Source: Minisyncoccota bacterium (GTDB lineage Bacteria; Patescibacteriota; Minisyncoccia; UBA6257). From it: 64,000 nt of DNA. Positions 1 to 45,438 of the stretch are shown here, piece after piece. A program made the position numbers and the translations under genes. The notes beneath the pieces are model-generated. The model saw only the letters and a list, made by a program, of their open reading frames with translations. It made no database searches and was not told the DNA's origin. Each line of letters begins with the position of its first letter. Positions within the stretch are counted from its first letter, which is position 1. The DNA lies in contig JAQVJR010000001.1 in NCBI GenBank assembly GCA_028695015.1, positions 255,297-319,296 of the forward strand, in the 5' to 3' direction.

Positions 1-357
1 AAAACAGAAGGTCTTTTACCAATTATAGAAACAAAATGGGCTAATTTAGAAGAAGAAAGAGGTAGTGGTTTGTCTAATGGTTCTTGTGATTTAGTTTTAA
101 TAGCTAATGTTCTTTTTCAAGTAGAAAATAAAGAAAAATTTCTTTTAGAAGCTAAAAGAGTTTTAAAACCAGAAAGTTATCTTGTAGTTATAGAATGGAA
201 TCCTGATAAACTGCCAGCACAAAAACAATTATTGCCTTTTTCAAAAGAAGATGCATTAAACCTAATTGAAAAATCAGGTTTTCAATTAGAAAGAGAATTG
301 TCTTTAGGTATTACTCATTACGGGTTTTTAGCAAAATTACCAAAAGCTAGGGCCTAA
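1..357 (+). CDS. SAM-dependent methyltransferase, C-terminal fragment (5' end outside the window)
   Basis: Frame stays open from nt 1 into the listed ORF 70..357. C-terminal class I methyltransferase-like motif (LVLIANVLFQVE...LKPESYLVVIEW). Confidence 0.45.
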   Translation, partial: KTEGLLPIIETKWANLEEERGSGLSNGSCDLVLIANVLFQVENKEKFLLEAKRVLKPESYLVVIEWNPDKLPAQKQLLPFSKEDALNLIEKSGFQLERELSLGITHYGFLAKLPKARA

Positions 358-369
358 AATATAAAAATC

Positions 370-1683
370 ATGTCTCTAACATCTCATCAAAAAAAAATTG
401 TTTTAATCACTTTTGTTGTTATTTTCTTGATTGCTTTTGTTAGTATTTTTTTTAGAAAAGTCCGCCCACAACCAATTACTTTAGAAATTTGGGGAATAAG
501 AGATGAACCTTTGGTTTTTGAACCTATAATTCAAGCTTACAATCAATCATATCCTCATGTTACTGTTAACTATACTTTAAAAGATGAGAAGACTTATCAT
601 GAAGATCTTTTAAGGGCTTTTGCAGATAATCAGGCGCCTGATATTTTAATGCTTCAAGATAATTGGTTGTCTGTTTATCAAGATAAAATCTATCCTTTAG
701 ACCTAAGTGCTGATAAACATTTTAATGTTTTTGATTTAAAGCAGGATTATTCACCAGTATCCCTGAGTGGGGTAATTGAGAATAATCATTTATTAGGTTT
801 GCCTTTTTATACTGATACCTTAGTTCTTTATTATAACCAGGATATTTTTAAGCATTATAATATAGTTTTACCACCAACTACTTGGGAAGAAATTCTTGAC
901 TTAATACCTATCTTGAGACAAGTAAATCCCCAAGGACGCATTAGCAGAGCAGCAATTGCCTTAGGCTTGGCTTCTAATGTTGAATGGGAAATAGATATTC
1001 TCTCAGCCTTAATGATGCAATATGGTAGTGAAATGGTTGATTTATCTGAAAAAAGGGTAATTTTTGATAGAGCTGTTGAAAAAGGAAATAAATCTATAGC
1101 CCCTGGAGAAGAAGCTATAAATTTTTATACTCAATTTGCAAATCCTTATTCTCGATATTATACCTGGAATGATAATATGGATAATTCAATAATTGCTTTT
1201 AGTCGAGGAGAAGCAGTGATGATGATAGGATATAACCAAGCAAAAAAAATAATAGAGAGGTATAGTCCTAATTTAAGTTATGGGGTTACTGCTTTACCTC
1301 AATTTATTGATGGTTCTTCTTCAAGGATTAATTATGGGCAAACAATGGTTTTATCAGTGCTCCAGTCCTCTCAGCACCAAAAAGCAAGTTGGGATTTTTT
1401 GAAATTTTTTAATCAAAAGAATATTGCTCAATCTTATTTTAATCAAACTAAAAATCCCCCTGCTCGGCTTGACTTGATTAATGAATCTCTTAATGATTTA
1501 GATAGTGGAGTTTTTATTAGGCAACTTTTAACAACTTATAATTGGTATCAATACAATTTTCAAGATATAAAAAAGATTTTTCAAGAAATGATTAACGGGG
1601 TTCTTTTAAAAGGTGAAGAACCAGCAAGGGCCATTGGAACAGCGCGAGACAATATTAATCTTTTTTGGAAACAAAGACAATGA
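370..1683 (+). CDS. ABC transporter substrate-binding protein (family 1, sugar type) with N-terminal membrane anchor
   Basis: 437 aa with an N-terminal TM helix. Overall resemblance to family-1 solute-binding proteins (ILMLQDNWL, YYNQDIF regions). Confidence 0.5.
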   Translation: MSLTSHQKKIVLITFVVIFLIAFVSIFFRKVRPQPITLEIWGIRDEPLVFEPIIQAYNQSYPHVTVNYTLKDEKTYHEDLLRAFADNQAPDILMLQDNWLSVYQDKIYPLDLSADKHFNVFDLKQDYSPVSLSGVIENNHLLGLPFYTDTLVLYYNQDIFKHYNIVLPPTTWEEILDLIPILRQVNPQGRISRAAIALGLASNVEWEIDILSALMMQYGSEMVDLSEKRVIFDRAVEKGNKSIAPGEEAINFYTQFANPYSRYYTWNDNMDNSIIAFSRGEAVMMIGYNQAKKIIERYSPNLSYGVTALPQFIDGSSSRINYGQTMVLSVLQSSQHQKASWDFLKFFNQKNIAQSYFNQTKNPPARLDLINESLNDLDSGVFIRQLLTTYNWYQYNFQDIKKIFQEMINGVLLKGEEPARAIGTARDNINLFWKQRQ

Positions 1684-1738
1684 TTAAATTAAAGAACAAG
1701 ATTTAATTAAATATAAAAAGGATTAAAATAAAAGAAAG

Positions 1739-2575
1739 ATGAAAAATACAAACAAAATAACTCAGAAATTAATTATCTTTTTCCTGATGATTAGTTTTTA
1801 TTGTTTTCCTTTCTTTATTCAAGCAGCTGGGCTAGTTCCTTGTGGAGGACCTTCAGAACCAGAGTGCAATATTTGTCATCTATTACAATTAGCTCAAAAT
1901 GTAGTGTATTTTGCCATAGAAATAGCTTTCTTAATCATTGTTATTTTAATAGTTTACGGAGGGTTTCTTTGGATTTTTTCAGCAGGCAAAGAAGAGAATA
2001 TCAGGACAGGGCAAAAAACAATTTATAATGCTATTATAGGGCTAATAATTATTTTAGCTGCTTGGGTAATTGTTAATACAATATTCTGGTTCCTTATTAA
2101 TTTTACTGGAGAACTTGATTCTGAATATTACACTGGCACTTGGTGGAAAATTGAATGCGAAGAAGTGAAGTCACAGTCCTCACAATCTCCTCAATCTCCA
2201 CAACCCCCGAGTTTTTCTTCCCCTGATCCTGACAGTAATCTTCCTCCCGCTCCTAGCCTTGAGGAGCAAATACAAAGCAGGAAAACTGAAATAGAGCAAA
2301 AGTATTGGGATGTAGCTAGTTATGGTAAATGGGCAGAGGAGTCAATCTATTGTTATGACTATATGGAAGCAGATTGCAAGCAGGCCTTTGGAACAGCTTA
2401 TTGTGAACCAAATTATTATTTAAAAGAAGGTTTTTGTTTTGCCTTGGATTCTACAACTGAGATTTTGCAATCAGAGAGTACAAAAACTGGTTGGACTTGT
2501 ACTTTTGAAAACACAGCAACAAAGCAGCCACAAGGCAAGGCTTTTGTTTATTGTATCCCTTCATATATTCATTAA
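1739..2575 (+). CDS. VirB2/TrbC-like (T4SS pilin-like) membrane protein with Ser/Pro-rich linker and Cys-rich C-terminal domain
   Basis: Signal/TM segment, then a PCGG..C..C motif. Double-TM pilin-like core (IVYGGFLWIFSAGKEENIRTGQKTIYNAIIGLIIILAAW) paralogous to the next two ORFs. Extra ~150 aa tail with an SQSPQSP linker and 8 Cys. Confidence 0.4.
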   Translation: MKNTNKITQKLIIFFLMISFYCFPFFIQAAGLVPCGGPSEPECNICHLLQLAQNVVYFAIEIAFLIIVILIVYGGFLWIFSAGKEENIRTGQKTIYNAIIGLIIILAAWVIVNTIFWFLINFTGELDSEYYTGTWWKIECEEVKSQSSQSPQSPQPPSFSSPDPDSNLPPAPSLEEQIQSRKTEIEQKYWDVASYGKWAEESIYCYDYMEADCKQAFGTAYCEPNYYLKEGFCFALDSTTEILQSESTKTGWTCTFENTATKQPQGKAFVYCIPSYIH

Positions 2576-2594
2576 TCTTAATTAACTTAATAAA

Positions 2595-2978
2595 ATGAAA
2601 AATCTTATTTTTATAATTAGTTTATTAACAATTTTCTTAATAGCTTTACCAGTGCTAGGGCAAGATCTTGTATTTAAAAATCCCTTTAAGGAAATTACAA
2701 CCATTACTAGTTTAATAGAAGCTATAATTAAATTCTTAAAGAGCTTGGCTATAATGGTAAGTGCAATACTCATTGTTTATGCAGGTTATTTATATATGAC
2801 TTCTGCTGGAAATCAGCAAAAGATAGAAACAGCTCAAAAGACTTTGATTTGGGCTTTAGTAGGGATTGGTGTAATTTTAATAGCAAGCGCAATAACTAAA
2901 GTAATTGAAAATGTTCTTGAAGTTGATTTAACAATAGGAAGCAATACAATAAGCGAAGTGAATAAGGTAGATAAATAA
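2595..2978 (+). CDS. VirB2/TrbC-like pilin-like small membrane protein
   Basis: Signal peptide plus two TM helices flanking a short charged loop (ILIVYAGYLYMTSAGNQQKIETAQKTLIWALVGIGVIL). Paralog of 1739 and 3096. Confidence 0.4.
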   Translation: MKNLIFIISLLTIFLIALPVLGQDLVFKNPFKEITTITSLIEAIIKFLKSLAIMVSAILIVYAGYLYMTSAGNQQKIETAQKTLIWALVGIGVILIASAITKVIENVLEVDLTIGSNTISEVNKVDK

Positions 2979-3095
2979 AAAAGATATCTAAAAATATATA
3001 ATGGCATTAGTAATAGGCATTATTTTTTATTGAGTATCTCTTTAAAATTTGTTATAATTTTTAAAGGTCGAATATAATTAATTTCAATAAACAAA

Positions 3096-3452
3096 ATGGA
3101 AAAATATATCGTACCAGTCTTGCTTTTAAGCTTTTTTATTGCTTTGCCTTGTTTTGGTCAACCAACAGTAACCGTGACTGTTCCTCCTGGAACAGCTGGA
3201 GGATTAACCGATATTTGGGCAATATTAACAAAAGTTTTAAACACCTTTTTTAATGTTGTGCTTTTTCTAGCAGCGATTATGATAATTTTTGCAGGTTGGC
3301 AATACATAACAGCAGCTGGAGATCCAGAAAAAGCCAAGAAGGCATTAAATTCTTTGGTTTATGCTTTGATAGGAGTGGGAATAGCTTTATTGGCTAAGGT
3401 ATTAATTTACCTAGTAGCTAATTTCTTAGGTGTAAGTATTACAGGTTTCTAA
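3096..3452 (+). CDS. VirB2/TrbC-like pilin-like small membrane protein
   Basis: Same architecture (IIFAGWQYITAAGDPEKAKKALNSLVYALIGVGIALLA). Third tandem paralog. Confidence 0.4.
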   Translation: MEKYIVPVLLLSFFIALPCFGQPTVTVTVPPGTAGGLTDIWAILTKVLNTFFNVVLFLAAIMIIFAGWQYITAAGDPEKAKKALNSLVYALIGVGIALLAKVLIYLVANFLGVSITGF

Positions 3453-3482
3453 GAAGTAAAAAAAAGATTAAATTACAAATTA

Positions 3483-3509
3483 AAAACTCCGTTTTAAACG
3501 GAGTTTTTA
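3483..3509. terminator. Bidirectional intrinsic terminator (perfect inverted repeat)
   Basis: AAAAACTCCGTTT/TAAACGGAGTTTTT palindrome flanked by A and T runs. Lies between the convergent pilin-like gene and tRNA-Leu. Confidence 0.7.
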
Positions 3510-3517
3510 ATTAATAG

Positions 3518-3603
3518 GGTGCCGCGGGGGAGATTTGAACTCCCACAGGGAAAACCCTAATAGGTTCTAAACCTATTGCGTCTGCCAGTTCCGCCACCGC
3601 GGC
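3518..3603 (-). tRNA. tRNA-Leu(UAG), no encoded CCA
   Basis: Reverse complement folds as GCCGCGG acceptor, anticodon loop TTTAGAA, long variable arm, T-arm GGGAGTTCAAATCTCCC. Confidence 0.8.
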
Positions 3604-3605
3604 TT

Positions 3606-4001
3606 TTATTCCTCTTCTATTTTTAAAGTTTTCTTTTTGGTTTTAATTAATTTTGGCAAATAGATACTAAGCAAACCATTTTTGATAGAGGCCTTAGCTT
3701 TATCAGCATTTATTTCTTGGGGCAAGATTAAGGAACGGGAAAAAGGGCCCCAAAAACACTCATTGTAATAAAATTTATCAATCTTATCTTTTCCTTCTCG
3801 GCTTCTTTCTCCTCTGATAGTAATCATGTCATTGGTGATAGAAATATCTATTTCATTTATATTCACACCGCCAATAGCCGCTTGAAGAATGAGCTCGTCT
3901 TTAGTTTCACAAAGGTCAATTGCTAATTCGCCTTCTTCTTCTGAAGCTGGCCAAGCAGTTTCTTCTTTGTTAATTTTCTTTGAAATGGTTTTTTCTGCCA
4001 T
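3606..4001 (-). CDS. Hsp20/alpha-crystallin family small heat-shock protein
   Basis: 131 aa. ACD-like core (ITIRGER...FSRSLILP...NGLLSIYLPK). Confidence 0.75.
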   Translation of the reverse strand: MAEKTISKKINKEETAWPASEEEGELAIDLCETKDELILQAAIGGVNINEIDISITNDMITIRGERSREGKDKIDKFYYNECFWGPFSRSLILPQEINADKAKASIKNGLLSIYLPKLIKTKKKTLKIEEE

Positions 4002-4005
4002 AGTA

Positions 4006-4746
4006 TTAAATTATTAATTTATTTTTTGGATTAATGGGTTTTTGAATCTGTTTCAGGATGTCAAATGCCCAAAGAAGGAAAATACAAGTAAAGAATAGGA
4101 CAAGGCTGATTATAAAAATAGCATCACTACCTAGTTTTATAATAGCAATATTAAAGAGCCAATGCAATGAAATACCTAAGAATAGCCCTATGCTTAAATA
4201 TCTTTTTTTATCAGTGACTAAACTTAATGCCCAGAAAAAACCAATAGTTCCTGAGCTTATGGCATGAAGTAAATTAGCGCCAACAAAACGTAAACTTATT
4301 AACTGAAGAGTTGGTAAAAAACTTGCTCCAAGCATTATTTCTTGAAAAGCAACTAATATATTCTCTACTGCCCCAAATCCTAGAGCCAAAACAATTAAAT
4401 AGATCATTGCATCTATTGCTTCATCAAAATACTTGTTTTTTTTCAAAGCTATAGTTGTGGTAAAGAACTTTGCTAATTCTTCTATTATTGCAATGATTAA
4501 ACAAGCAAGAATAGCAACTGGAAAGGACAAAGAGCCTAGAGTATTAATTTTAAATAGTTTTAGTAAATAATTTTCAATAATTCCAACAAAGGGGGTAATT
4601 ATAGCTCCTAATAGAAATAGAATTAAAAGCCATTTTAAAGGCTCTGGTTTATTGATATCTTGCCATAGAAAAAATATTAACCAGAGAATAATAGGCAAGA
4701 GTCCAATAAAGCTTGCTAAAATAAAAGTCAAAATCATTGAGGCCAT
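4006..4746 (-). CDS. PrsW-family intramembrane protease (putative)
   Basis: Polytopic membrane protein with EELAKF, FGAVEN, HAISSG and HWLFN motifs resembling PrsW signatures. Confidence 0.5.
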   Translation of the reverse strand: MASMILTFILASFIGLLPIILWLIFFLWQDINKPEPLKWLLILFLLGAIITPFVGIIENYLLKLFKINTLGSLSFPVAILACLIIAIIEELAKFFTTTIALKKNKYFDEAIDAMIYLIVLALGFGAVENILVAFQEIMLGASFLPTLQLISLRFVGANLLHAISSGTIGFFWALSLVTDKKRYLSIGLFLGISLHWLFNIAIIKLGSDAIFIISLVLFFTCIFLLWAFDILKQIQKPINPKNKLII

Positions 4747-6902
4747 TGAGTAATTATTAAGAGATTGTCTTTTTTGTTTTCATAATGAGGTAGTTTTTGC
4801 CAAATAGCTTCAGTAACAAATGGCATGAATGGATGTAGCATTTTTAAGCAATCTTTCAGAATTATATCAAGGATATATTGAGCTTGTTTTTTATCTTGAT
4901 TATCTTTAATCCTGTTTTTCATTTCCTCAATTATTTTATCAGCAAAAGTGTGCCAAAAATAATGATAAAGGGCTTCTCCAGCTAAAGAGAATTTAAAGTT
5001 TTCTAAGTTTTTTGTTATCTTTTGTTTTGTTTTCTTAAAGGCAATTAATGTCTTTTTATCTTTTACATTAAGTGTTGGTTTTTTACCATCATAATCATTT
5101 AAATTACTAATAACAAAACGAGAGGCATTCCATATTTTATTAGCAAAATTACGATAACCTTTGATTTTTTCTTCTGAAATAACAATATCATTACCAGCAG
5201 TATTACCTATAATTAAAGCCATTCTTAAAGCATCAGCTCCATAAACATCAATTACAGCTAAGGGGTCAATAACATTACCTTTTGATTTTGACATTTTTTG
5301 TCTATCTTTATCTCTGACCAAACCATGAAGATAAACATATTTAAATGGAATTTTCCCAGTATAGTAAATACCTAGGATAATCATCCTAGCAACCCAGAAA
5401 AATAAAATATCCCAACCAGTTTCCATTATGTCAGTAGGATAAAAGGTTTTAAAGTCTTTTGATTTTAACCCTTGGTTGCCAAAAAGAGTAGCATAGGGCC
5501 ATTGACCTGAAGAGAACCAAGTGTCTAAAACATCAGTATCTTTTTTTATATTCTTGCTTTGACAATAAAGGCATTTCTTAGGGATTTTATCTATTTGTAT
5601 AAAAGATTCTTTGCAATCTTCGCAATGAAAGGCAGGAATAGGAATCCCCCAACGGATTTGACGGGAAATATTCCAGTCTTTAATATTATTCATCCAATGG
5701 AAAAATACCTTTTCAAAGCGAGGGGGAATTATTTTTATCTCTCCTTTTTTTACAGCATTAATAGCTAAATCGTTTAAAGACTTATTTTTCTTTGGCAAGG
5801 GTTTAGTCATTGCTATAAACCATTGATCCATAATCATTGGCTCTATTCTGGAATTACATTTATAACAATGTCCTACTTGATGAACATGCTCTTCTTTTTT
5901 AACTAAAGAGTCACTAGCTTGTAAAATTGTTATTGATTTTTCTCTGGCTTGAGAAACATTAAGTCCAGCTAAAGGCCCAGCTAATTCATTAAAATAGCCG
6001 TTAAAATCCAAAGTCTCTCTTGTTTCTAAATGATGTCTTTGTCCAATTTCAAAATCTAAAGAATCATGGGCTGGAGTAATTTTTAAAGCCCCAGTACCAA
6101 AATCAATTTCAACATCCTTATCAGCAATTATAGGAATTTCTCTTTTAGTGATTGGTTCGATAACAACTTTATTAATTAATTTTTTATATCTATTATCCTT
6201 AGGATTAACGGCTATAGCTGTGTCTCCAGGAATAGTTTCTGGTCTGGTAGTAGCCACAGTAATCCATTTGTTTCTTTCTTCTTTTAATTTGTATCTTACA
6301 AAATAGAGAAAATCTTTTTGTTCTTGATATTTAACTTCTAATTCAGAAAAAGCGGTTTTATGCTTAGGGCAATAATTGACAATTCTTTTACCTCGATAGA
6401 GTAATCCGTCTTTCCACAATTTCTCTAAGGTTTGATAAACAGTTTTTTGAATATCCTCATCAAGAGTAAATTTTTCCCGAGACCAATCACAAGAAGCTCC
6501 TAAGAGCTTTAATTGATATCTGACAATTTTTTTGTTTTTTTGCGTATATTGCCAAACTGCTTTATAAAACTCATCTCGATTCATCTCTAAGCCAGATTTC
6601 CCTTGCTTTTCTAATTCTTTTTCAAAAACTACTTGGGTTTCAAATCCAGCATGATCAGTGCCTGGAAGCCAAAGAGTTCTTTTGCCTCTCATTCTTTGAA
6701 AACGAATCATCAAATCTTGCAAAGTAACAAAAACACCATGGCCAATATGTAATGGTGCATTAGCGTTTGGCGGAGGCATAATAATGCAAAAAGGTTTGCT
6801 TTTTTTATCAAAAGGTAATTTATCAGGATTAAAAAAGCCTGATTTTTCCCAAAGCTGGTAGATATTCTTTTCTGTTTTTTGATGTTCGTAAACCTTATCC
6901 AC
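4734..6902 (-). CDS. valS: Valine--tRNA ligase (short form)
   Basis: PPPNANAPLHIGHG (HIGH) and KMSKSKGN motifs. 722 aa, lacking the long C-terminal coiled coil. Confidence 0.85.
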   Translation of the reverse strand: MDKVYEHQKTEKNIYQLWEKSGFFNPDKLPFDKKSKPFCIIMPPPNANAPLHIGHGVFVTLQDLMIRFQRMRGKRTLWLPGTDHAGFETQVVFEKELEKQGKSGLEMNRDEFYKAVWQYTQKNKKIVRYQLKLLGASCDWSREKFTLDEDIQKTVYQTLEKLWKDGLLYRGKRIVNYCPKHKTAFSELEVKYQEQKDFLYFVRYKLKEERNKWITVATTRPETIPGDTAIAVNPKDNRYKKLINKVVIEPITKREIPIIADKDVEIDFGTGALKITPAHDSLDFEIGQRHHLETRETLDFNGYFNELAGPLAGLNVSQAREKSITILQASDSLVKKEEHVHQVGHCYKCNSRIEPMIMDQWFIAMTKPLPKKNKSLNDLAINAVKKGEIKIIPPRFEKVFFHWMNNIKDWNISRQIRWGIPIPAFHCEDCKESFIQIDKIPKKCLYCQSKNIKKDTDVLDTWFSSGQWPYATLFGNQGLKSKDFKTFYPTDIMETGWDILFFWVARMIILGIYYTGKIPFKYVYLHGLVRDKDRQKMSKSKGNVIDPLAVIDVYGADALRMALIIGNTAGNDIVISEEKIKGYRNFANKIWNASRFVISNLNDYDGKKPTLNVKDKKTLIAFKKTKQKITKNLENFKFSLAGEALYHYFWHTFADKIIEEMKNRIKDNQDKKQAQYILDIILKDCLKMLHPFMPFVTEAIWQKLPHYENKKDNLLIITQWPQ

Positions 6903-6930: not shown

Positions 6931-8034
6931 CTATAATCTTAAATTAGCCATTGCTTCAATTTTTTTCCAATCCCAAGTTTTTTTTGGGCCATAAACATAT
7001 TGGAAAAAGCTGGCAAGTGCTACCATTATAGCATTATCAGTAGTGTATTCCAATAAAGGAGTTAGGAATTTAATATCTAAATTTTTCTCTTTTAATTTGT
7101 TTTCAAATTTTTGTCTTAATCTTAAATTAGCTGAAACTCCTCCAGCTAAAATAATGGATTTTGTTTTAAATTCTTGAGCAGCTTTAAGAGTTTTCTCTAC
7201 TAAAACATCAGTAATAGCTTCTTGAAGTTCAAAAGCAAGCATTGAGGCTAATTTCTTTTTTTTATTTGAAAAATTAATCTCTTGAGCTAAATAAAGAAGA
7301 GCGGTTTTTAATCCAGAAAAAGAAAAATCATAATCTTTGGTATGCATCATTGGCCTAGGTAGGGAAATATCTTGTAGTTCTGATATTTTTTCAATTACTT
7401 TAACTTGTTCTGCTATTTTAGCTATATTTGGTCCGCCAGGGTATTCTAAACCCAAAATACGAGCTCCTTTATCAAAACATTCACCAGCAGCATCATCTCG
7501 GGTTTCACCAATGATTTTATAATTACCGAATTTTTTAATATGGACTAATTGAGTATGGCCACCAGAAACTAAAAGACAAATAGCAGGGAATATATTCTCA
7601 TAATCATTAATTGAAAGTTTATGGCTTTTATTATTTTCTGGTAATAAAAAACTAAATAAATGTCCTTCTAAATGATTAACACCCATAATAGGTTTTTCCC
7701 AAGCCCAAGCTAATGTTTTAGCAAAATTAACACCAATTAATAAAGAAAGAATTAAGCCTGGTCCTTTAGTAACAGCAATAAGATCAATTTTAGAAAATTC
7801 TTTTTTAGAACCAAAGGCTTGTTGTAAAGATTTTTTTAAAACAAAAGGAATATTTTTTGCATGTTCTCTACTAGCTAGCATTGGGACAACGCCTCCGTAT
7901 TCTTTGTGGATTTTAATTTGACTAGAAATAACATTACTTAGGGGCTTAATAAAAAAACCGGCCTTGGTTTTTTTAGCTTCTAAAATACCAATAGCCGTTT
8001 CATCACAAGAAGTTTCTATTCCTAAAATTATCAT
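6931..8034 (-). CDS. tsaD: tRNA N6-adenosine threonylcarbamoyltransferase TsaD
   Basis: MIILGIETSCDETAIGI N-terminus, Kae1/Gcp family. Confidence 0.85.
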   Translation of the reverse strand: MIILGIETSCDETAIGILEAKKTKAGFFIKPLSNVISSQIKIHKEYGGVVPMLASREHAKNIPFVLKKSLQQAFGSKKEFSKIDLIAVTKGPGLILSLLIGVNFAKTLAWAWEKPIMGVNHLEGHLFSFLLPENNKSHKLSINDYENIFPAICLLVSGGHTQLVHIKKFGNYKIIGETRDDAAGECFDKGARILGLEYPGGPNIAKIAEQVKVIEKISELQDISLPRPMMHTKDYDFSFSGLKTALLYLAQEINFSNKKKKLASMLAFELQEAITDVLVEKTLKAAQEFKTKSIILAGGVSANLRLRQKFENKLKEKNLDIKFLTPLLEYTTDNAIMVALASFFQYVYGPKKTWDWKKIEAMANLRL

Positions 8035-13247: not shown

Positions 13248-13320
13248 TCGGGGTGGTGGGATTTGAACCCACGATCTCAGCGTCCCGAACGCTGCGTGTT
13301 AGCCTCTGCACTACGCCCCG
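13248..13320 (-). tRNA. tRNA-Pro(CGG)
   Basis: Reverse complement: C1-G72 acceptor (one mismatch), anticodon stem CAGCG/CGCTG with loop TTCGGGA, T-arm GTGGGTTCAAATCCCAC. No CCA. Confidence 0.7.
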
Positions 13321-14810
13321 TTGTTTACATAGTATTTTTTCTTAATTTTTATTTCCTCTTCTTCTAAGAGATTTTGATATTTTTCTTCAGCAATTTTTCT
13401 TTTTTTAATCAATTCTTTTTCCGGTAATTTTATTATTTGTTTAGCAATTTTCTCTAAATCTTTCTTATTGTTTTTTTTAGGATCATCCAAGACTTCTTCT
13501 AAGAGAATGCTTAAAACAGCTCCAATCTTTGGTCCTGGTTGTAGTTTTAGGTTTTTAATAAGATCATTGCCATTTATTTTTAAAATCTTTAAAGAAGGTT
13601 GATTTCCTTCTAGTTCTTGTAAAACTTTTTCTACACGAAAAAGAAAATGGCGTAAACGAAAAGGTAAGGCTTTAGGACATCCAGAACCAATACGGTCTGC
13701 TTCTCTTACTTGGGCTAATTCTTGGATGTTTTCTTTCCCAACCTTGACTAATAATCTTCGGACCGCAGCATCAGTAGTAATTTCTGGATCATAAACAAAT
13801 TGATGGTAGCGAATTAGCTTAAGAGTTTTTTCTGAAATAGATTTTGGGAATTTTAGTCGATTAAAGATTCTAGCTGAGATTTTAGTTCCCACCCATTCAT
13901 GATTATAAAAAGTAGAATCTATTCCCTCGCCCTGCTTAACCTGAGGTTTACCAATATCATGGAATAAGCTGGCTAATTTCACTTCTAAACTAAAATCTTT
14001 CTTTGCTGCATAATCCAAAGAACGCCATAAATGTTCCCAAACAGTATAAATATGATGTTTATTTTGAGTAACCCCTATTGATTCTTCTAATTCTGGAATG
14101 ATTTCTTTTAATAGATTAGTTTCTTTTAATAACAAGACTCCTTGAGCAGCTTGTCGAGTATTAATAATCTTAATAAATTCATCACGAATTCTCTCCTTGG
14201 AGATAAAAGACAAAAGTGAAGAATTTGCTTTGATAGCTTTTTGAGTCTTAGGTTCAATTTTAAAATTCAATTCGCAAGCTAAACGAATAGCTCGCATTAA
14301 TCTTAATCCATCTTCTTGGAAACGATTTGCTGGATCTCCAACTGTTCGGATAATCTTGTTTTTTAAGTCTTTTTGTCCATCATATAAATCTATAATTTGA
14401 AATTTTGGTTTTTGGCTTTTAGAGGTTTCAATTCTTAAAGCTATAGCATTAATAGTAAAATCACGACGGCAAAGATCTTCTTCTATTGTTTTTGCAAATT
14501 GAATCTTGTCCGGATGTCTTTTATCAGTGTATTTTCCTTCTTTTCGGAAAGTGGTAATTTCTATTATCTTTAAAGTTGGGTCTTTTGACCTTGTTTTTAC
14601 TGCTATGGTACCAAAATTATTCTCATACAAACTATCAGGAAAAATTGCTTGAATTTGTTCAGGTAGGGCATTAGTGGCAATATCCCAATCTTTAGGTTTT
14701 TGAGCAGGATGAATAAGCAGGTCTCTGACACAGCCACCAACAATATAGGCTTCAAAATTAGCTTTAGTAAGCTTTTCTAAGATGTTTAAAATTTCTTTAG
14801 GGATTTGCAT
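13311..14810 (-). CDS. cca: CCA-adding tRNA nucleotidyltransferase with C-terminal HD domain
   Basis: GGCVRDLL head motif (pol-beta superfamily) and LFHDIGKP HD motif. Stop overlaps tRNA-Pro by a few nt. Confidence 0.7.
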   Translation of the reverse strand: MQIPKEILNILEKLTKANFEAYIVGGCVRDLLIHPAQKPKDWDIATNALPEQIQAIFPDSLYENNFGTIAVKTRSKDPTLKIIEITTFRKEGKYTDKRHPDKIQFAKTIEEDLCRRDFTINAIALRIETSKSQKPKFQIIDLYDGQKDLKNKIIRTVGDPANRFQEDGLRLMRAIRLACELNFKIEPKTQKAIKANSSLLSFISKERIRDEFIKIINTRQAAQGVLLLKETNLLKEIIPELEESIGVTQNKHHIYTVWEHLWRSLDYAAKKDFSLEVKLASLFHDIGKPQVKQGEGIDSTFYNHEWVGTKISARIFNRLKFPKSISEKTLKLIRYHQFVYDPEITTDAAVRRLLVKVGKENIQELAQVREADRIGSGCPKALPFRLRHFLFRVEKVLQELEGNQPSLKILKINGNDLIKNLKLQPGPKIGAVLSILLEEVLDDPKKNNKKDLEKIAKQIIKLPEKELIKKRKIAEEKYQNLLEEEEIKIKKKYYVNNGA

Positions 14811-22269: not shown

Positions 22270-24078
22270 ATGAATAAATTAGCAAAATCTTTTGTTTTTA
22301 TTTTTCTTATCTTTTTAAGTCTCTCGCTCATCTTTTCTGCAATGAGCGGTCTTGTTATTACTCCAGAAAAGATCAGCCTTTCAGAAGCCATTCAGGTTTT
22401 AAAAGAAGAACGACCAACAGAAGTAATTCTTTATCCAAATAAATTTGAAATTGTCCTTAATGAAGAAAAAACTTTTACTGCTGAAAGAGAGCCTAATGTA
22501 TCTTTTTCTGAAACTCTTCAGAATTTTGGTTTTTTGCCAGAAGAAATATCAGCTCTTAATATTGAAGTTAAAGGAGAGGGTGGCCTAGCTTTTTTCCTAT
22601 CAGTGATTTTACCAATTTTATTACCAGTTATTATCTTGGGGTTTCTTTTGTTTTATTCTTTCCGTCGAGCCAATCAAGGGGCAATGCAAATTTTCTCTTT
22701 TTCTCGTTCAAATATTAAATTATTTGCTCCAAGCAAAGATGGTATTAGTTTTAAAGATGTGGCTGGCTTAAAAGAAGCAAAAGAAGAATTAAAAGAAGTG
22801 GTTGAGTTTTTAAAAACCCCTAAGAAATTTTATGATTTAGGTGCTAAAATTCCCAGAGGAGTTCTTTTAATGGGGCCACCAGGCTCAGGGAAAACTTTAT
22901 TAGCCAGAGCTGTGGCTGGTGAAGCCAGAGTTCCTTTTTTCCATATTTCTGGTTCTGAATTTGTAGAAATGTTTGTTGGGGTTGGAGCTAGTCGTGTTAG
23001 AGATACATTTGCTACTGCTAAAAAAGCAGCTCCTTCTATCTTATTCATTGATGAGATAGACGCAATTGGGAGAATTAGGGGCGCTGGAGTTGGTGGTGGG
23101 CATGATGAAAGAGAGCAGACTTTAAATCAAATCTTAGTAGAAATGGATGGTTTTGATAGAGATACAAAGATAATTGTTATTGCAGCAACTAATAGGCCAG
23201 ATGTTTTAGATCCAGCTTTATTAAGGCCAGGTCGTTTTGACAGGCGAGTGATTTTAGATATGCCAAGCATTAATGACCGGGAAGAAATATTAAAAATTCA
23301 TAGTCGGGGTAAAACATTAGATTTGAGCGTAGATTTAAGAGAGATAGCTGAAAGAACACCTGGTTTTTCTGGTGCTGATTTAGCAAACTTAGTTAATGAA
23401 GCAGCAATTTTAGCAGCAAGAAGAAATAAAAAAAATATTAGCCAGCAAGAATTATTAGATTCAATAGAAAAAGTCATCTTAGGCCCAGAAAGAAAAAGTC
23501 GTCTTTTAACAAAAAAAGAAAAAGAAATCACTGCTTATCATGAAGCAGGACATGCTCTAATTACAGCTTTACTTCCAGGCACTGTTTTAGTTAGAAAGAT
23601 TTCTATTATTGCACGTGGTAGAGCAGCTGGTTATACAATGAGAATGCCTACAGAAGAAAAATACATGAAAACCTACTCAGAATTCTTAAATGATCTTTGT
23701 GCTCTTCTAGGAGGTTATGTAGCAGAAGAAATCAAATTTAAAGATGTTTCTACAGGCGCTGCTAATGATTTAAGAGAAGTAACAGACATTGCTAGAAGTT
23801 TAGTAACTAAATATGGGATGAGCAAGAAACTGGGTCCAATTTCTTTTGGTGAAACAGAAGAACTTGTCTTTTTAGGTAGGGAAATAGCCACAGAGAAAAA
23901 TTACTCAGAAGAAACAGCAGCCAAGATAGATAAAGAAGTTTTGGGTATTATAAATAAATGCTATCAGAAAACTAAAAAATTATTGAAAAAAAATATCAAT
24001 AAATTAGAATTAGTTACTCAGGAATTAATTAAAAAAGAAACCTTAGAAAAGGAAGAATTTGAAGATCTTATAAAATAG
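22270..24078 (+). CDS. ftsH: ATP-dependent zinc metalloprotease FtsH
   Basis: Walker [17 protein letters not shown] region and HEAGHA zinc motif. N-terminal TM. Confidence 0.9.
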
Positions 24079-24083
24079 TAAAA

Positions 24084-24159
24084 GGGCGTATAGCTCAGTG
24101 GTTAGAGCGCCACTCTTATAAAGTGGAGGTCGATGGTTCAATTCCATCTACGCCCACCA
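24084..24159 (+). tRNA. tRNA-Ile(UAU) with encoded CCA
   Basis: GGGCGTA acceptor, anticodon stem CCACT/AGTGG, loop CTTATAA (anticodon TAT). Body closely resembles bacterial tRNA-Ile(GAU) (TTAGAGCGC, GAGGTCGATGGTTCAATTCCATC, CCCACCA). Confidence 0.75.
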
Positions 24160-24160
24160 T

Positions 24161-24234
24161 GGGCGGTTAGCTCAGTTGGTTAGAGCGCGTACTTGACGTG
24201 TATGAGGTCAGGGGTTCGAGTCCTCTACCGCCCA
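24161..24234 (+). tRNA. tRNA-Val(GAC)
   Basis: Acceptor GGGCGGT/ACCGCCC, anticodon stem CGTAC/GTATG, loop TTGACGT. Confidence 0.75.
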
Positions 24235-24297
24235 CCCTAAGATTAAGGATTAGAAATTAACGACATTGTTTGTCGTTAATTTAAATAACAGGTTTAT

Positions 24298-25266
24298 ATG
24301 AGAAAAATCATTGTTGAACAAATTCCTAAGCCTGTGCGCTTGGATAAATACTTAAAAGAAGTAATCAAAGATATTTCTAGAGAGAAAATTGTTTTTTTAA
24401 TTAAGCAAGGGAAGATTAAAATCAAAGATAAAGAAAAGATCAAGCCCAGTCTTTTATTAAAAGGAGGAGAGGAAATTTATTTAGATGATTCTGTTATTCA
24501 AAAAAACAAAGAAGCACCTGTTTTAAAACCATTATCTTTGAGCTTAGAGCCAAAGATCTTGTATGAAAACAATGATTTATTAGTAATAGATAAGCCAGCA
24601 GGAGTTTTAACCCATGCTTCTCTTAGTAATCTTAATTCTCCTTCTATAGCCAGTTGGTTAATAGGTAAATATCCTTTTATCTCTCAAGTAGGTGAAGATA
24701 AGTTAAGGCCTGGTATTGTCCATCGTCTGGATAAAGACACTGCTGGAGTTTTAATTATTGCTAAAAATAATAATTCTTTTTTTTATTTGAAAAATCTTTT
24801 TAAGCAGAGAAAGGTTAAGAAAAGATATGTTGCTTTAGTTAAGGGTGAATTAAAGCAATCAAAAGGAGAGATAGATTTTCCTTTGACTCGTTCTAAAAAA
24901 TCAACAGTAAAACAAAAGGTAGTTGTAAATAAAACAGAAGAGAGAAAAGCTAAGGCAGCGCTTACTAAATATCAGGTCTTAGAAAGATTTAAAGGATTTA
25001 CTCTTTTAGAAATCATGCCAGAAACAGGCAGAACTCATCAAATCAGGGTTCATTTAGCAAGCATTGGTTTTCCTGTTGTTGGTGATAAGCTATATGGCAA
25101 GTTTAAGAAATCTGATAATTTTAATTTATCATATCACTTTCTTCATGCTCAAGAAGTTTCTTTTATTTCTCCTACTGGAGAGAACCTTGTAATTAAAACA
25201 TCCCTACCTCAAGAATTAAAAGAGTTTTTAAATCAATTAAGCAAAACCTCTAAAAAAGTTGCTTAA
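24298..25266 (+). CDS. RluA-family pseudouridine synthase (RluD-like, S4 plus catalytic domain)
   Basis: HRLDKDTAGVLIIAKN catalytic Asp motif. N-terminal S4-like region. Confidence 0.75.
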   Translation: MRKIIVEQIPKPVRLDKYLKEVIKDISREKIVFLIKQGKIKIKDKEKIKPSLLLKGGEEIYLDDSVIQKNKEAPVLKPLSLSLEPKILYENNDLLVIDKPAGVLTHASLSNLNSPSIASWLIGKYPFISQVGEDKLRPGIVHRLDKDTAGVLIIAKNNNSFFYLKNLFKQRKVKKRYVALVKGELKQSKGEIDFPLTRSKKSTVKQKVVVNKTEERKAKAALTKYQVLERFKGFTLLEIMPETGRTHQIRVHLASIGFPVVGDKLYGKFKKSDNFNLSYHFLHAQEVSFISPTGENLVIKTSLPQELKEFLNQLSKTSKKVA

Positions 25267-45092: not shown

Positions 45093-45129
45093 ATGATTAA
45101 AACTTAAAAATATCAATAGTTTTTTAAAG

Positions 45130-45438
45130 TGCCGAGGCGGTGAATCGAACACCGGACGCTTTGCTCTTCCGAATATTCTCTAAATTACTTTAGAGTTTGG
45201 ACTATATCATCACCCTATTTATAGGGGCTGGGCGCTTTGAAGCAAATATTTACTTGCCCCTACTCTTAAAAAAGATAGTCTCTACACCTCCCTATTTGAA
45301 AATTAATTCAATTAGGTTTGGCTCGGAATTGCCCAAGACAATATTTGGGTTTTTCCGATTTCACCCAGTTTGCAATCCATATTACTATGGAATGGCCCAA
45401 AGATTTAGGCAAACGCTCTACCACTGAGCTACCTCGGC
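45130..45438 (-). tRNA. Intron-containing tRNA gene, most likely tRNA-Phe(GAA); exons 45407..45438 and 45130..45169
   Basis: 5' exon (reverse complement) GCCGAGGTAGCTCAGTGGTAGAGCGTTTGCCT. 3' exon GAAGAGCAAAGCGTCCGGTGTTCGATTCACCGCCTCGGCA. Joined, they give a 72-nt tRNA with anticodon stem TTTGC/GCAAA and loop CTGAAGA, plus U20, a GCGUC variable loop and A73 as in tRNA-Phe. Confidence 0.7.
45170..45406 (-). ncRNA. Group I self-splicing intron (IC3-like) in the tRNA anticodon loop between U33 and G34
   Basis: Exon ends in U and intron ends in G. P1: exon GCCU pairs with intron GGGC. P10: 3' exon GAAG pairs with intron CUUU just 5' of the IGS. P2: CCATA-GTAA-TATGG. P7: AGACTAT...ATAGTC. P9: CTCTAAA-GTAA-TTTAGAG. 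GGTGTAGAGACTA and CCGAGCCAAACC blocks match Azoarcus/Anabaena-type tRNA introns. Confidence 0.7.

Follow-up and report, generated by a model that had tools for sequence, protein, structure and literature searches.

The window analysed here is a 64-kb stretch of DNA from a Minisyncoccota bacterium, and together with 10 kb beyond its left end we inspected 74 kb of this organism. The window contains ftsH, a tRNA gene with a UAU anticodon directly downstream of it, and then a gene for tRNA-Val(GAC) (Table 1). The middle gene, tRNA-Ile(UAU), is our subject. The window has ~31% G+C and a coding density of ~90%. Contigs that encode the identical FtsH are present in metagenomes from biogas plants and anaerobic digesters. 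Among species-representative genomes, the nearest is that of "Candidatus Paceibacterota bacterium STE_70" (96% identity in FtsH), and the next 79 species representatives are metagenome-assembled genomes of Parcubacteria, Paceibacterota, or Minisyncoccia (55–87% identity). The organism is a bacterium of the Patescibacteria, or Candidate Phyla Radiation (CPR), from the Paceibacterota/Parcubacteria lineage.

Throughout, we called tRNAs with ARAGORN and the Rfam tRNA model and assigned protein domains with Pfam. ARAGORN reports the gene as Ile(tat), and the Rfam model matches it at 24084..24156 with 79.1 bits (E = 1e-15), the top score among 18 tRNA matches in the window. Read directly, the letters GGGCGTA-TA-GCTC-AGTGGTTA-GAGC-G-CCACT-CTTATAA-AGTGG-AGGTC-GATGG-TTCAATT-CCATC-TACGCCC-A-CCA form a cloverleaf without any flaw, with stems of 7, 4, 5, and 5 bp, the variable loop AGGTC, and A73 as the discriminator. 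The anticodon loop is C32-U33-U34-A35-U36-A37-A38, and the anticodon itself (TAT) is at 24117..24119. A preliminary description of this DNA had named a tRNA-Ile with a UAU anticodon and the loop CUUAUAA at 24084-24159, and both programs and the direct reading agree with it.

The assignment to isoleucine does not rely on the anticodon. When we compared the gene to 5,426 complete E. coli genomes using blastn, a gene annotated as tRNA-Ile was the best match in 5,426 of 5,426 (78–80% identity, with 99% of the length covered), so the body is indeed that of a typical tRNA-Ile, as had been claimed. The top matches are GAU-type genes, whose D-arm, variable loop, and T-arm are nearly identical to those of the window tRNA. 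We also tried to tell from E. coli whether the body originated from Ile1 or Ile2, and we abandoned this because the window copy and its family of orthologs (described below) point opposite ways: the window tRNA is 80.5% identical to the GAU-type (ileT-type) body versus 73.7% to ileX, while 58 of the 67 family members are slightly nearer to ileX. In work by Nureki from 1994, the identity elements for the isoleucyl-tRNA synthetase (IleRS) of E. coli are said to be A73 and the pairs C4-G69, U12-A23, and C29-G41. The window tRNA has C4-G69 and U12-A23, and its 29-41 pair is A-U; the E. coli rules were worked out on a type 1 enzyme, and this lineage uses type 2. We are nearly certain that the window encodes a functional tRNA-Ile that reads AUA.

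The preliminary description had expected AUA to be frequent, and it is: across 54 open reading frames (ORFs) of the window, AUA makes up 511 of the 1,896 isoleucine codons (27%), or 26.7 per 1,000 codons. The leading isoleucine codon in these ORFs is AUU (61%). By the classes of PMC12514573, this is a "high AUA" genome. To see what AUA means, we used an alignment of 80 FtsH orthologs. At the columns where the window has ATA, the other species have isoleucine (54%), valine (20%), leucine (18%), or methionine (4%). The window's ATT columns have a similar profile, and its ATG columns have 51% methionine and 1% isoleucine. Because the ATA columns behave like the ATT columns and unlike the ATG columns, AUA is not reassigned.

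The gene is conserved well beyond this genome. We collected 84 ftsH loci (1.39 Mb), of which 80 are species representatives (L005–L084) whose FtsH proteins are 55–96% identical to the window copy. In 67 of the 80 species (71 of the 84 loci), a tRNA-Ile(UAU) lies downstream of ftsH at a distance of at most 1.6 kb. Eight of the 13 loci without a nearby tRNA-Ile(UAU) have less than 1.1 kb of sequence downstream of ftsH, which leaves 67 of 72 informative species. In those 67 species, the median distance between the two genes is 144 nt, and the tRNA is co-oriented with ftsH in 51 and inverted in 16. The 67 orthologs represent 63 distinct sequences, yet C32-U33-U34-A35-U36-A37 and A73 are invariant in all 67. 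In a sample of 20 sequences from this family, the cloverleaf positions pair in 99.5% of cells. Compensatory changes are seen at 15 of the 21 pairs, and each of the five anticodon-stem pairs covaries. As a control, we slid the partner columns by 1–3 positions, which left pairing in just 29–46% of cells. Because the loop (positions 32–37) and A73 are invariant while the stems turn over, the UAU anticodon itself is under purifying selection.

Other neighbors of ftsH are less well kept. An RluA-family gene is adjacent in 13 of the 67 species and the gene for L19 in 9 of 67. Upstream of ftsH, the window has a 416-amino-acid hypothetical protein and PNPase, and distant relatives have S1-domain, VTT/DedA, or hypothetical proteins. 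The linkage of ftsH and tRNA-Ile(UAU) thus persists through the reshuffling of all other neighbors and through inversion. It may be a coincidence or it may reflect a shared regulatory logic. As a conserved trait with linkage to ftsH, tRNA-Ile(UAU) belongs to a CPR lineage of class level rather than to this genome in particular.

In the textbook view, bacteria were thought to need one essential modification enzyme, TilS, to tell AUA from AUG, and the preliminary description had raised a possible loss of tilS. We looked for both parts of the lysidine system, starting with the enzyme. Neither the window nor the ftsH loci (1.39 Mb) contain an ORF with the SGGxDS (PP-loop) motif. With the TilS of E. 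coli as the query, phmmer found no homolog among the 7,735 ORFs of 60 or more amino acids from the window and the 84 loci (best E = 0.045). We also built a hidden Markov model of the TilS N-domain from E. coli, Geobacillus, Aquifex, and six Aquificae sequences (three phyla). For this search we added 1.13 Mb around ileS, from 80 further metagenomic contigs of the lineage, which brings the sampled lineage DNA to ~2.5 Mb of ftsH and ileS neighborhoods, a non-random selection. Among the 14,216 ORFs of the enlarged set, the model found no TilS and only two MnmA-type paralogs (E = 5e-4 and 0.04). The 10 kb beyond the left end of the window has no tilS either; it encodes GyrA, a class Ib aminoacyl-tRNA synthetase, an ABC transporter, and four more tRNAs. 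In Firmicutes and Actinobacteria, tilS-hpt lies directly upstream of ftsH. We checked this classical slot in the window and in its relatives and found neither tilS nor hpt there. A query of a large protein database with the TilS N-domain of Aquifex returned Aquificae only and is uninformative about any TilS from CPR bacteria; the E. coli protein as the query would be expected to fare no better. The tables of KEGG orthologs (KO) in two comparative papers on CPR bacteria have no entries for tilS, and a TilS from a jumbo phage (PMC8504454) is not CPR-like.

The substrate of TilS is missing from the sampled DNA as well. There is no Ile2-type CAU tRNA among the ~290 tRNAs of all loci, nor among the organism's 23 tRNAs in 74 kb, both of which are incomplete sets. 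The only CAU genes in all loci are one adjacent pair in L145 (17072..17773, minus strand). One of the two is marked as an initiator by its C1xA72 mismatch. The other, with U32 instead of the C32 that is invariant in the Ile(UAU) family, is most simply an elongator tRNA-Met. The initiator of this pair has C33 in place of the near-universal U33 (loop CCCATAA), and the pair mirrors the genes 00815 and 00817 of a published bin.

That bin is PMX_810_sub, "Ca. Yanofskyibacterium" of the Paceibacteria, whose DRAM/BlastKOALA annotation lists 866 features (PMC10936435 Table S2, PMC9600506). Neither K04075 nor PF01171 is among the 866, and the annotated tRNAs include two tRNA(CAT) and one tRNA-Ile(GAT). 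The word "lysidine" occurs once in the annotation, in the name that Prokka gave to gene 00091. This gene lies among polysaccharide genes, was assigned no KO for TilS, and has an N-acetyl sugar amidotransferase as its best UniRef match.

In short, tilS and a canonical tRNA-Ile(CAU) were both sought in the sampled DNA and neither was found, while the tRNA body scores as isoleucine. This is consistent with the suggested loss of tilS, which stays unproven in that no complete genome was covered. We think it likely that the organism has neither tilS nor tRNA-Ile(CAU).

The aminoacyl-tRNA synthetases encoded in the window are ValRS, ArgRS, and MetRS, and none of them is IleRS. (We considered a 722-amino-acid class I synthetase at 4734..6902 on the minus strand, which is ValRS.) One of the ftsH loci, L068, has both a tRNA-Ile(UAU) and ileS (180..3782), which encodes a protein of 1,200 amino acids. 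This protein passes the NCBIfam model for ileS (835 bits), and the models for MupA and MupB score nearly as well. In comparisons to the PDB, it scores 745–775 bits against 1ILE and the 8C8U-8C9D group (1,032 amino acids), ~550 bits against the eukaryotic cytoplasmic IleRS, and ~300 bits against 1FFY and 8C9E. 1ILE is the IleRS of T. thermophilus and 1FFY the type 1 IleRS of S. aureus; the 8C8U group is IleRS2 of P. megaterium, and 8C9E its IleRS1, two enzymes that preprint 10.64898/2026.02.03.703510 discusses. PF19302 is found at the C-terminus. The same architecture is present in all of the best 120 matches in a database of 5.8 billion proteins, under names that include Parcubacteria, Paceibacterota, Nealsonbacteria, and Patescibacteria, and in cultured or enriched relatives. 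Judged by these similarities, the IleRS of the lineage is a eukaryote-like type 2 enzyme.

The enzyme has another unusual feature. At about amino acids 518–669, the IleRS of L068 contains an inserted histidine-phosphatase domain (PF00300, His_Phos_1, similar to phosphoglycerate mutase) with an intact RHGE motif. The insert interrupts the catalytic core and has a CxxC motif on either side. It is also present in all 120 of the best matches (1,121–1,217 amino acids), in "Ca. Yanofskyibacterium", and in Minisyncoccus. We did not find any literature on a phosphatase domain embedded in IleRS. The preliminary description had proposed a special IleRS and had recommended a look at its anticodon-binding part; the enzyme of the lineage does stand out, both by its type 2 class, with PF19302 at the C-terminus, and by the embedded phosphatase. 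A functional tie between the phosphatase domain and UAU decoding or charging seems doubtful to us. Prokka mislabelled ileS of Yanofskyibacterium as "phosphoglycerate mutase GpmB", and the name of these proteins at NCBI is often just "class I tRNA ligase family protein".

We propose that tRNA-Ile(UAU) stands in for the lysidine system in a lineage that would have neither TilS nor tRNA-Ile2(CAU), and we give this full explanation, lysidine independence included, a probability of about 70%. Several points weigh against it. The absence of tilS and tRNA-Ile(CAU) comes from partial, non-random DNA (two neighborhoods and one window, with no complete genome). The bin PMX_810_sub also lacks ftsH and tRNA-Ile(TAT), so it must be incomplete. 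In 5 of the 72 informative species, tRNA-Ile(UAU) is not near ftsH. The type 2 class was read from L068 and its relatives in the database, and ileS of the window organism itself was not seen. Also, about half of bacteria have a type 2 IleRS, most of them along with tilS (preprint 10.64898/2026.02.03.703510), so this type is not diagnostic of the loss of tilS. It does seem to be permissive for UAU, because Bifidobacterium and Neorickettsia, which lack tilS, use the eukaryote-type (type 2) IleRS (PMC3575796). TilS is otherwise near-universal in bacteria (PMC12514573), and a functional tRNA-Ile(UAU) could be a redundant decoder in an organism that has kept tilS and tRNA-Ile2(CAU), with AUA read by both the LAU tRNA (where L is lysidine) and the UAU tRNA. 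tRNA-Ile(UAU) and tilS do coexist in Lactobacillus casei/plantarum, Cyanothece, and Ferrimonas, which is the "transition state" of Taniguchi et al. (PMC3575796), and with just ~74 kb of the organism covered, tilS could sit in the remainder. We consider redundancy unlikely all the same. If tilS were at a shuffled position in genomes of ~0.9 Mb, then a rough estimate predicts about three copies in ~2.5 Mb, and there is no homolog among the 14,216 ORFs. PMX_810_sub has neither K04075 nor PF01171, and its only CAT tRNAs are the two mentioned above. Finally, the UAU gene is strictly kept in 93% of the informative species even though the lineage is genome-streamlined, which argues against a dispensable second decoder.

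In Mycoplasma and in organelles, unmodified U34 reads whole boxes. By such superwobble (a concept discussed in PMC13092985), tRNA-Ile(UAU) could read AUU, AUC, and AUA and be a general or even the sole tRNA-Ile. There is no tRNA-Ile(GAU) in the window or in the ftsH loci, and the annotated relative PMX_810_sub has no MnmE, as this idea would have it. On the other hand, the lineage does have tRNA-Ile(GAT), in PMX_810_sub (gene 00478, PMX_810_sub_00478, which adjoins tRNA-Ala(TGC)) and in L158; the leading codon AUU is the expected job of a GAU tRNA; and four-way wobble in the AUN box would place isoleucine at AUG. We regard superwobble as very improbable. That the gene is not an isoleucine decoder at all, whether as a pseudogene, as a tRNA of another identity with TAT by chance, or because AUA is reassigned (to methionine, for instance), is effectively refuted: the rarity of TAT tRNA genes in bacteria is all that speaks for it, whereas the gene has the best tRNA score in the window, its family covaries around an invariant anticodon loop and an invariant A73, E. 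coli matches it with tRNA-Ile, and the ATA columns are isoleucine-like with only 4% methionine.

If tRNA-Ile(UAU) is the AUA decoder of a lineage without lysidine, its path from gene to ribosome might be as follows. It would be transcribed jointly with tRNA-Val(GAC), by read-through from ftsH or from an internal promoter; RNase P would free the 5' ends of both tRNAs, and the single spacer base behind the encoded CCA would be trimmed. The TsaD-containing machinery would convert A37 to N6-threonylcarbamoyladenosine (t6A), and the window copy has the U36-A37-A38 context for this. t6A37 is important for isoleucylation (PMC3575796), and one report (PMC13276492) describes a strict 36-UAA-38 requirement for its formation in bacteria. 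In the Ile(UAU) family, however, 39 species have C at position 38, 24 have A, and 4 have U; either t6A is made differently in this lineage or many members do without it. The type 2 IleRS of the lineage would then charge the tRNA, and U34 would pair with the A of AUA. AUG might be spared by ribosomal discrimination as in Mycoplasma mobile, by competition with tRNA-Met, or by a modification of U34. As to the last option, PMX_810_sub has MnmA and no MnmE, which argues against xm5U34. We also considered the RluA-family gene downstream of the tRNAs as a dedicated modifier of U34/U36, and we rejected it: it is so seldom adjacent in the other species that pseudouridine-34 has no support from synteny, and it looks like an rRNA enzyme of the RluD/RluC type.

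The nearest known case is tRNA-Ile2(UAU) of M. mobile (Taniguchi et al. 2013, PMC3575796). As in the window, UAU is encoded in an AT-rich, reduced genome, the tRNA is dedicated to AUA and its A37 lies in a context for t6A, and neither tilS nor tRNA-Ile(CAU) was found (for our lineage, in the sampled DNA). M. mobile is a single species with a recent loss of tilS, whereas the trait in the window spans a class-level lineage. Also, M. mobile has a type 1 IleRS with a change from Trp to Arg in the zinc-binding domain (Arg865, at the position of W905 in E. coli), while the type 2 IleRS of the lineage has no zinc-binding domain. The demonstrations that U34 is unmodified and that the ribosome discriminates AUA from AUG come from M. 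mobile alone (PMC3575796).

Bifidobacterium and Neorickettsia likewise have both tRNA-Ile(UAU) and a type 2 IleRS (PMC3575796). They belong to other phyla, their lack of tilS is known from complete genomes rather than from sampled loci, and the Paceibacterota IleRS has the His_Phos_1 insert in addition. The bacteria in the transition state (PMC3575796) also have a tRNA-Ile(TAT) gene, but it is sporadic and species-level and tilS is present, whereas here the gene is lineage-wide and the sampled DNA has no tilS. In Bacillus subtilis, the tilS-suppressor tRNA-Ile1 G34U (Fabret 2011; Kohrer 2014, PMC3919564) shows that a tRNA-Ile body with U34 can sustain the decoding of AUA without TilS; that tRNA is a laboratory product, and the one described here is a natural, conserved gene. 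Lastly, the eukaryotic cytoplasmic tRNA-Ile(UAU), which has pseudouridines at positions 34 and 36, shares the encoded UAU and charging by a type 2 IleRS (for our lineage, the charging is what we would predict). The eukaryotic gene has an intron, which is required for pseudouridines 34/36. The window gene has no intron.

An AUA decoder of the M. mobile or Bifidobacterium kind is therefore a kind already known. What appears to be undescribed is a conserved, syntenic tRNA-Ile(UAU) as a trait of a class-level CPR lineage, and its occurrence together with an IleRS2 in which a phosphatase domain is embedded. Full-text searches turned up no paper that ties tilS, lysidine, UAU, or AUA to the Candidate Phyla Radiation, Patescibacteria, Parcubacteria, or Saccharibacteria. 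Encoded tRNA-Ile(UAU) was known from nine bacterial species in 2013, and a 2026 preprint still refers to "rare cases" (10.64898/2026.02.03.703510). tRNADB-CE also held 371 unassigned TAT tDNAs from metagenomes (PMC3575796). If the lineage relies on tRNA-Ile(UAU), CPR bacteria are a plausible source of these 371.

For the broadest statement, that a class-level CPR lineage of thousands of species has no lysidine system at all, reads AUA with an ftsH-linked tRNA-Ile(UAU), and charges this tRNA with a remodelled IleRS of type 2, we lean slightly towards yes. If so, a major branch of bacterial diversity uses an alternative solution to the AUA problem, and the view that TilS is universal and essential, with UAU tRNAs as rare exceptions, fails for a large part of bacterial diversity. 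The UAU state could then be ancestral rather than a loss, by analogy to the model of Taniguchi in which UAU precedes LAU. There would be practical consequences too. TilS (TIGR02432) is one of the bac120 markers of GTDB. It would be a systematically absent marker in Paceibacterota, and antibacterial ideas directed at TilS would be inapplicable to them. Since Minisyncoccus archaeiphilus is now in culture, the handling of U34 by the type 2 IleRS and by a CPR ribosome is open to testing.

Table 1. Features of the window that bear on tRNA-Ile(UAU), with positions counted from the first nucleotide of the window.
Feature	Position	Strand	Evidence and remarks
TsaD, catalytic subunit for t6A37	6931..8034	-	Pfam TsaD, 284.5 bits
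CCA-adding enzyme	13311..14810	-	Pfam PF01743, PF12627, PF01966, PF13735; PolyA_pol head, RNA-binding, and HD domains
ftsH (AAA and peptidase M41)	22270..24078	+	Pfam AAA, AAA_lid_3, Peptidase_M41; stop codon 5 nt before tRNA-Ile(UAU)
Sigma-70-like promoter match TTGAAA-16-TAGAAT (candidate)	23983..24010	+	Consensus scan, 10/12; within the last part of ftsH, with ~75 nt between it and the tRNA
tRNA-Ile(UAU), 73-nt body with encoded CCA (24157..24159)	24084..24159	+	ARAGORN Ile(tat), Rfam tRNA, direct reading
tRNA-Val(GAC)	24161..24234	+	Rfam tRNA, 63.9 bits; ARAGORN 24160..24237
RluA-family pseudouridine synthase	24298..25266		S4 domain; RluD/RluC-type rRNA enzyme by appearance

The preliminary description had emphasized that the tRNA ends in an encoded CCA and is alone in this. 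It is the only such tRNA in the window: a complete genomic CCA is absent from the other 18 (17 ARAGORN calls plus a tRNA-Phe that is split by an intron). The emphasis was misplaced, however. Among the relatives, 15 of the 67 genes for tRNA-Ile(UAU) encode CCA, as do 35 of the 203 genes for other tRNAs (p = 0.37 by Fisher's test). The family thus has a genuine CCA only here and there, without enrichment, and we do not consider it a meaningful feature. Because the window encodes a CCA-adding enzyme, 18 of its 19 tRNAs can go without an encoded CCA.

A single spacer base (24160) separates the CCA of tRNA-Ile(UAU) from tRNA-Val(GAC), and a tandem of Ile(tat) with Val(gac) or Val(tac) recurs in ~24 related loci. 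From this arrangement, the two tRNAs are probably co-transcribed. The promoter match in the 3' end of ftsH is weak evidence for an internal promoter: the region has 5 promoter-like sites versus 8.9 in shuffled sequences, that is, fewer than in the shuffles, and the match is not significant. At 24254..24282 on the plus strand, 17 nt past tRNA-Val and 16 nt before the next start codon, there is an AT-rich 12-bp inverted repeat (AAATTAACGACA-ttgtt-TGTCGTTAATTT). This repeat lacks a T-run and was therefore missed by the terminator scan; it could be a processing or termination element.

The density of tRNA genes is unusually high, with 19 in the 64-kb window and 23 in the 74 kb, or about half of a typical CPR complement (~44). 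The 23 include every leucine anticodon of the six except AAG, and none has CAU. One of them, tRNA-Phe(GAA) at 45438..45129 on the minus strand, is just downstream of tRNA-Ala(GGC) and tRNA-Val(UAC) and is interrupted after nucleotide 33 by a group I intron of 237 nt (45406..45170; RF00028, 93.9 bits). The 5' splice site follows the U of the U-G pair in P1, and splicing in silico gives a perfect tRNA-Phe of 73 nt. The tRNA-Phe(GAA) genes of seven relatives are uninterrupted. Classical group I introns in bacterial tRNAs are in the Leu(UAA), fMet, Ile(CAU), and Arg(CCU) genes. We had considered that this intron, also placed at 45178..45416 on the minus strand, might hide a tRNA-Ile(CAU), but the spliced product is tRNA-Phe(GAA).

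Elsewhere in the window, at 1739..3452 on the plus strand, three small tandem ORFs have Pfam matches to T4SS_pilin (PF18895) or TrbC and adjoin a gene for a solute-binding protein. These matches would fit with the type IV secretion or pilus systems that have been described for Patescibacteria.

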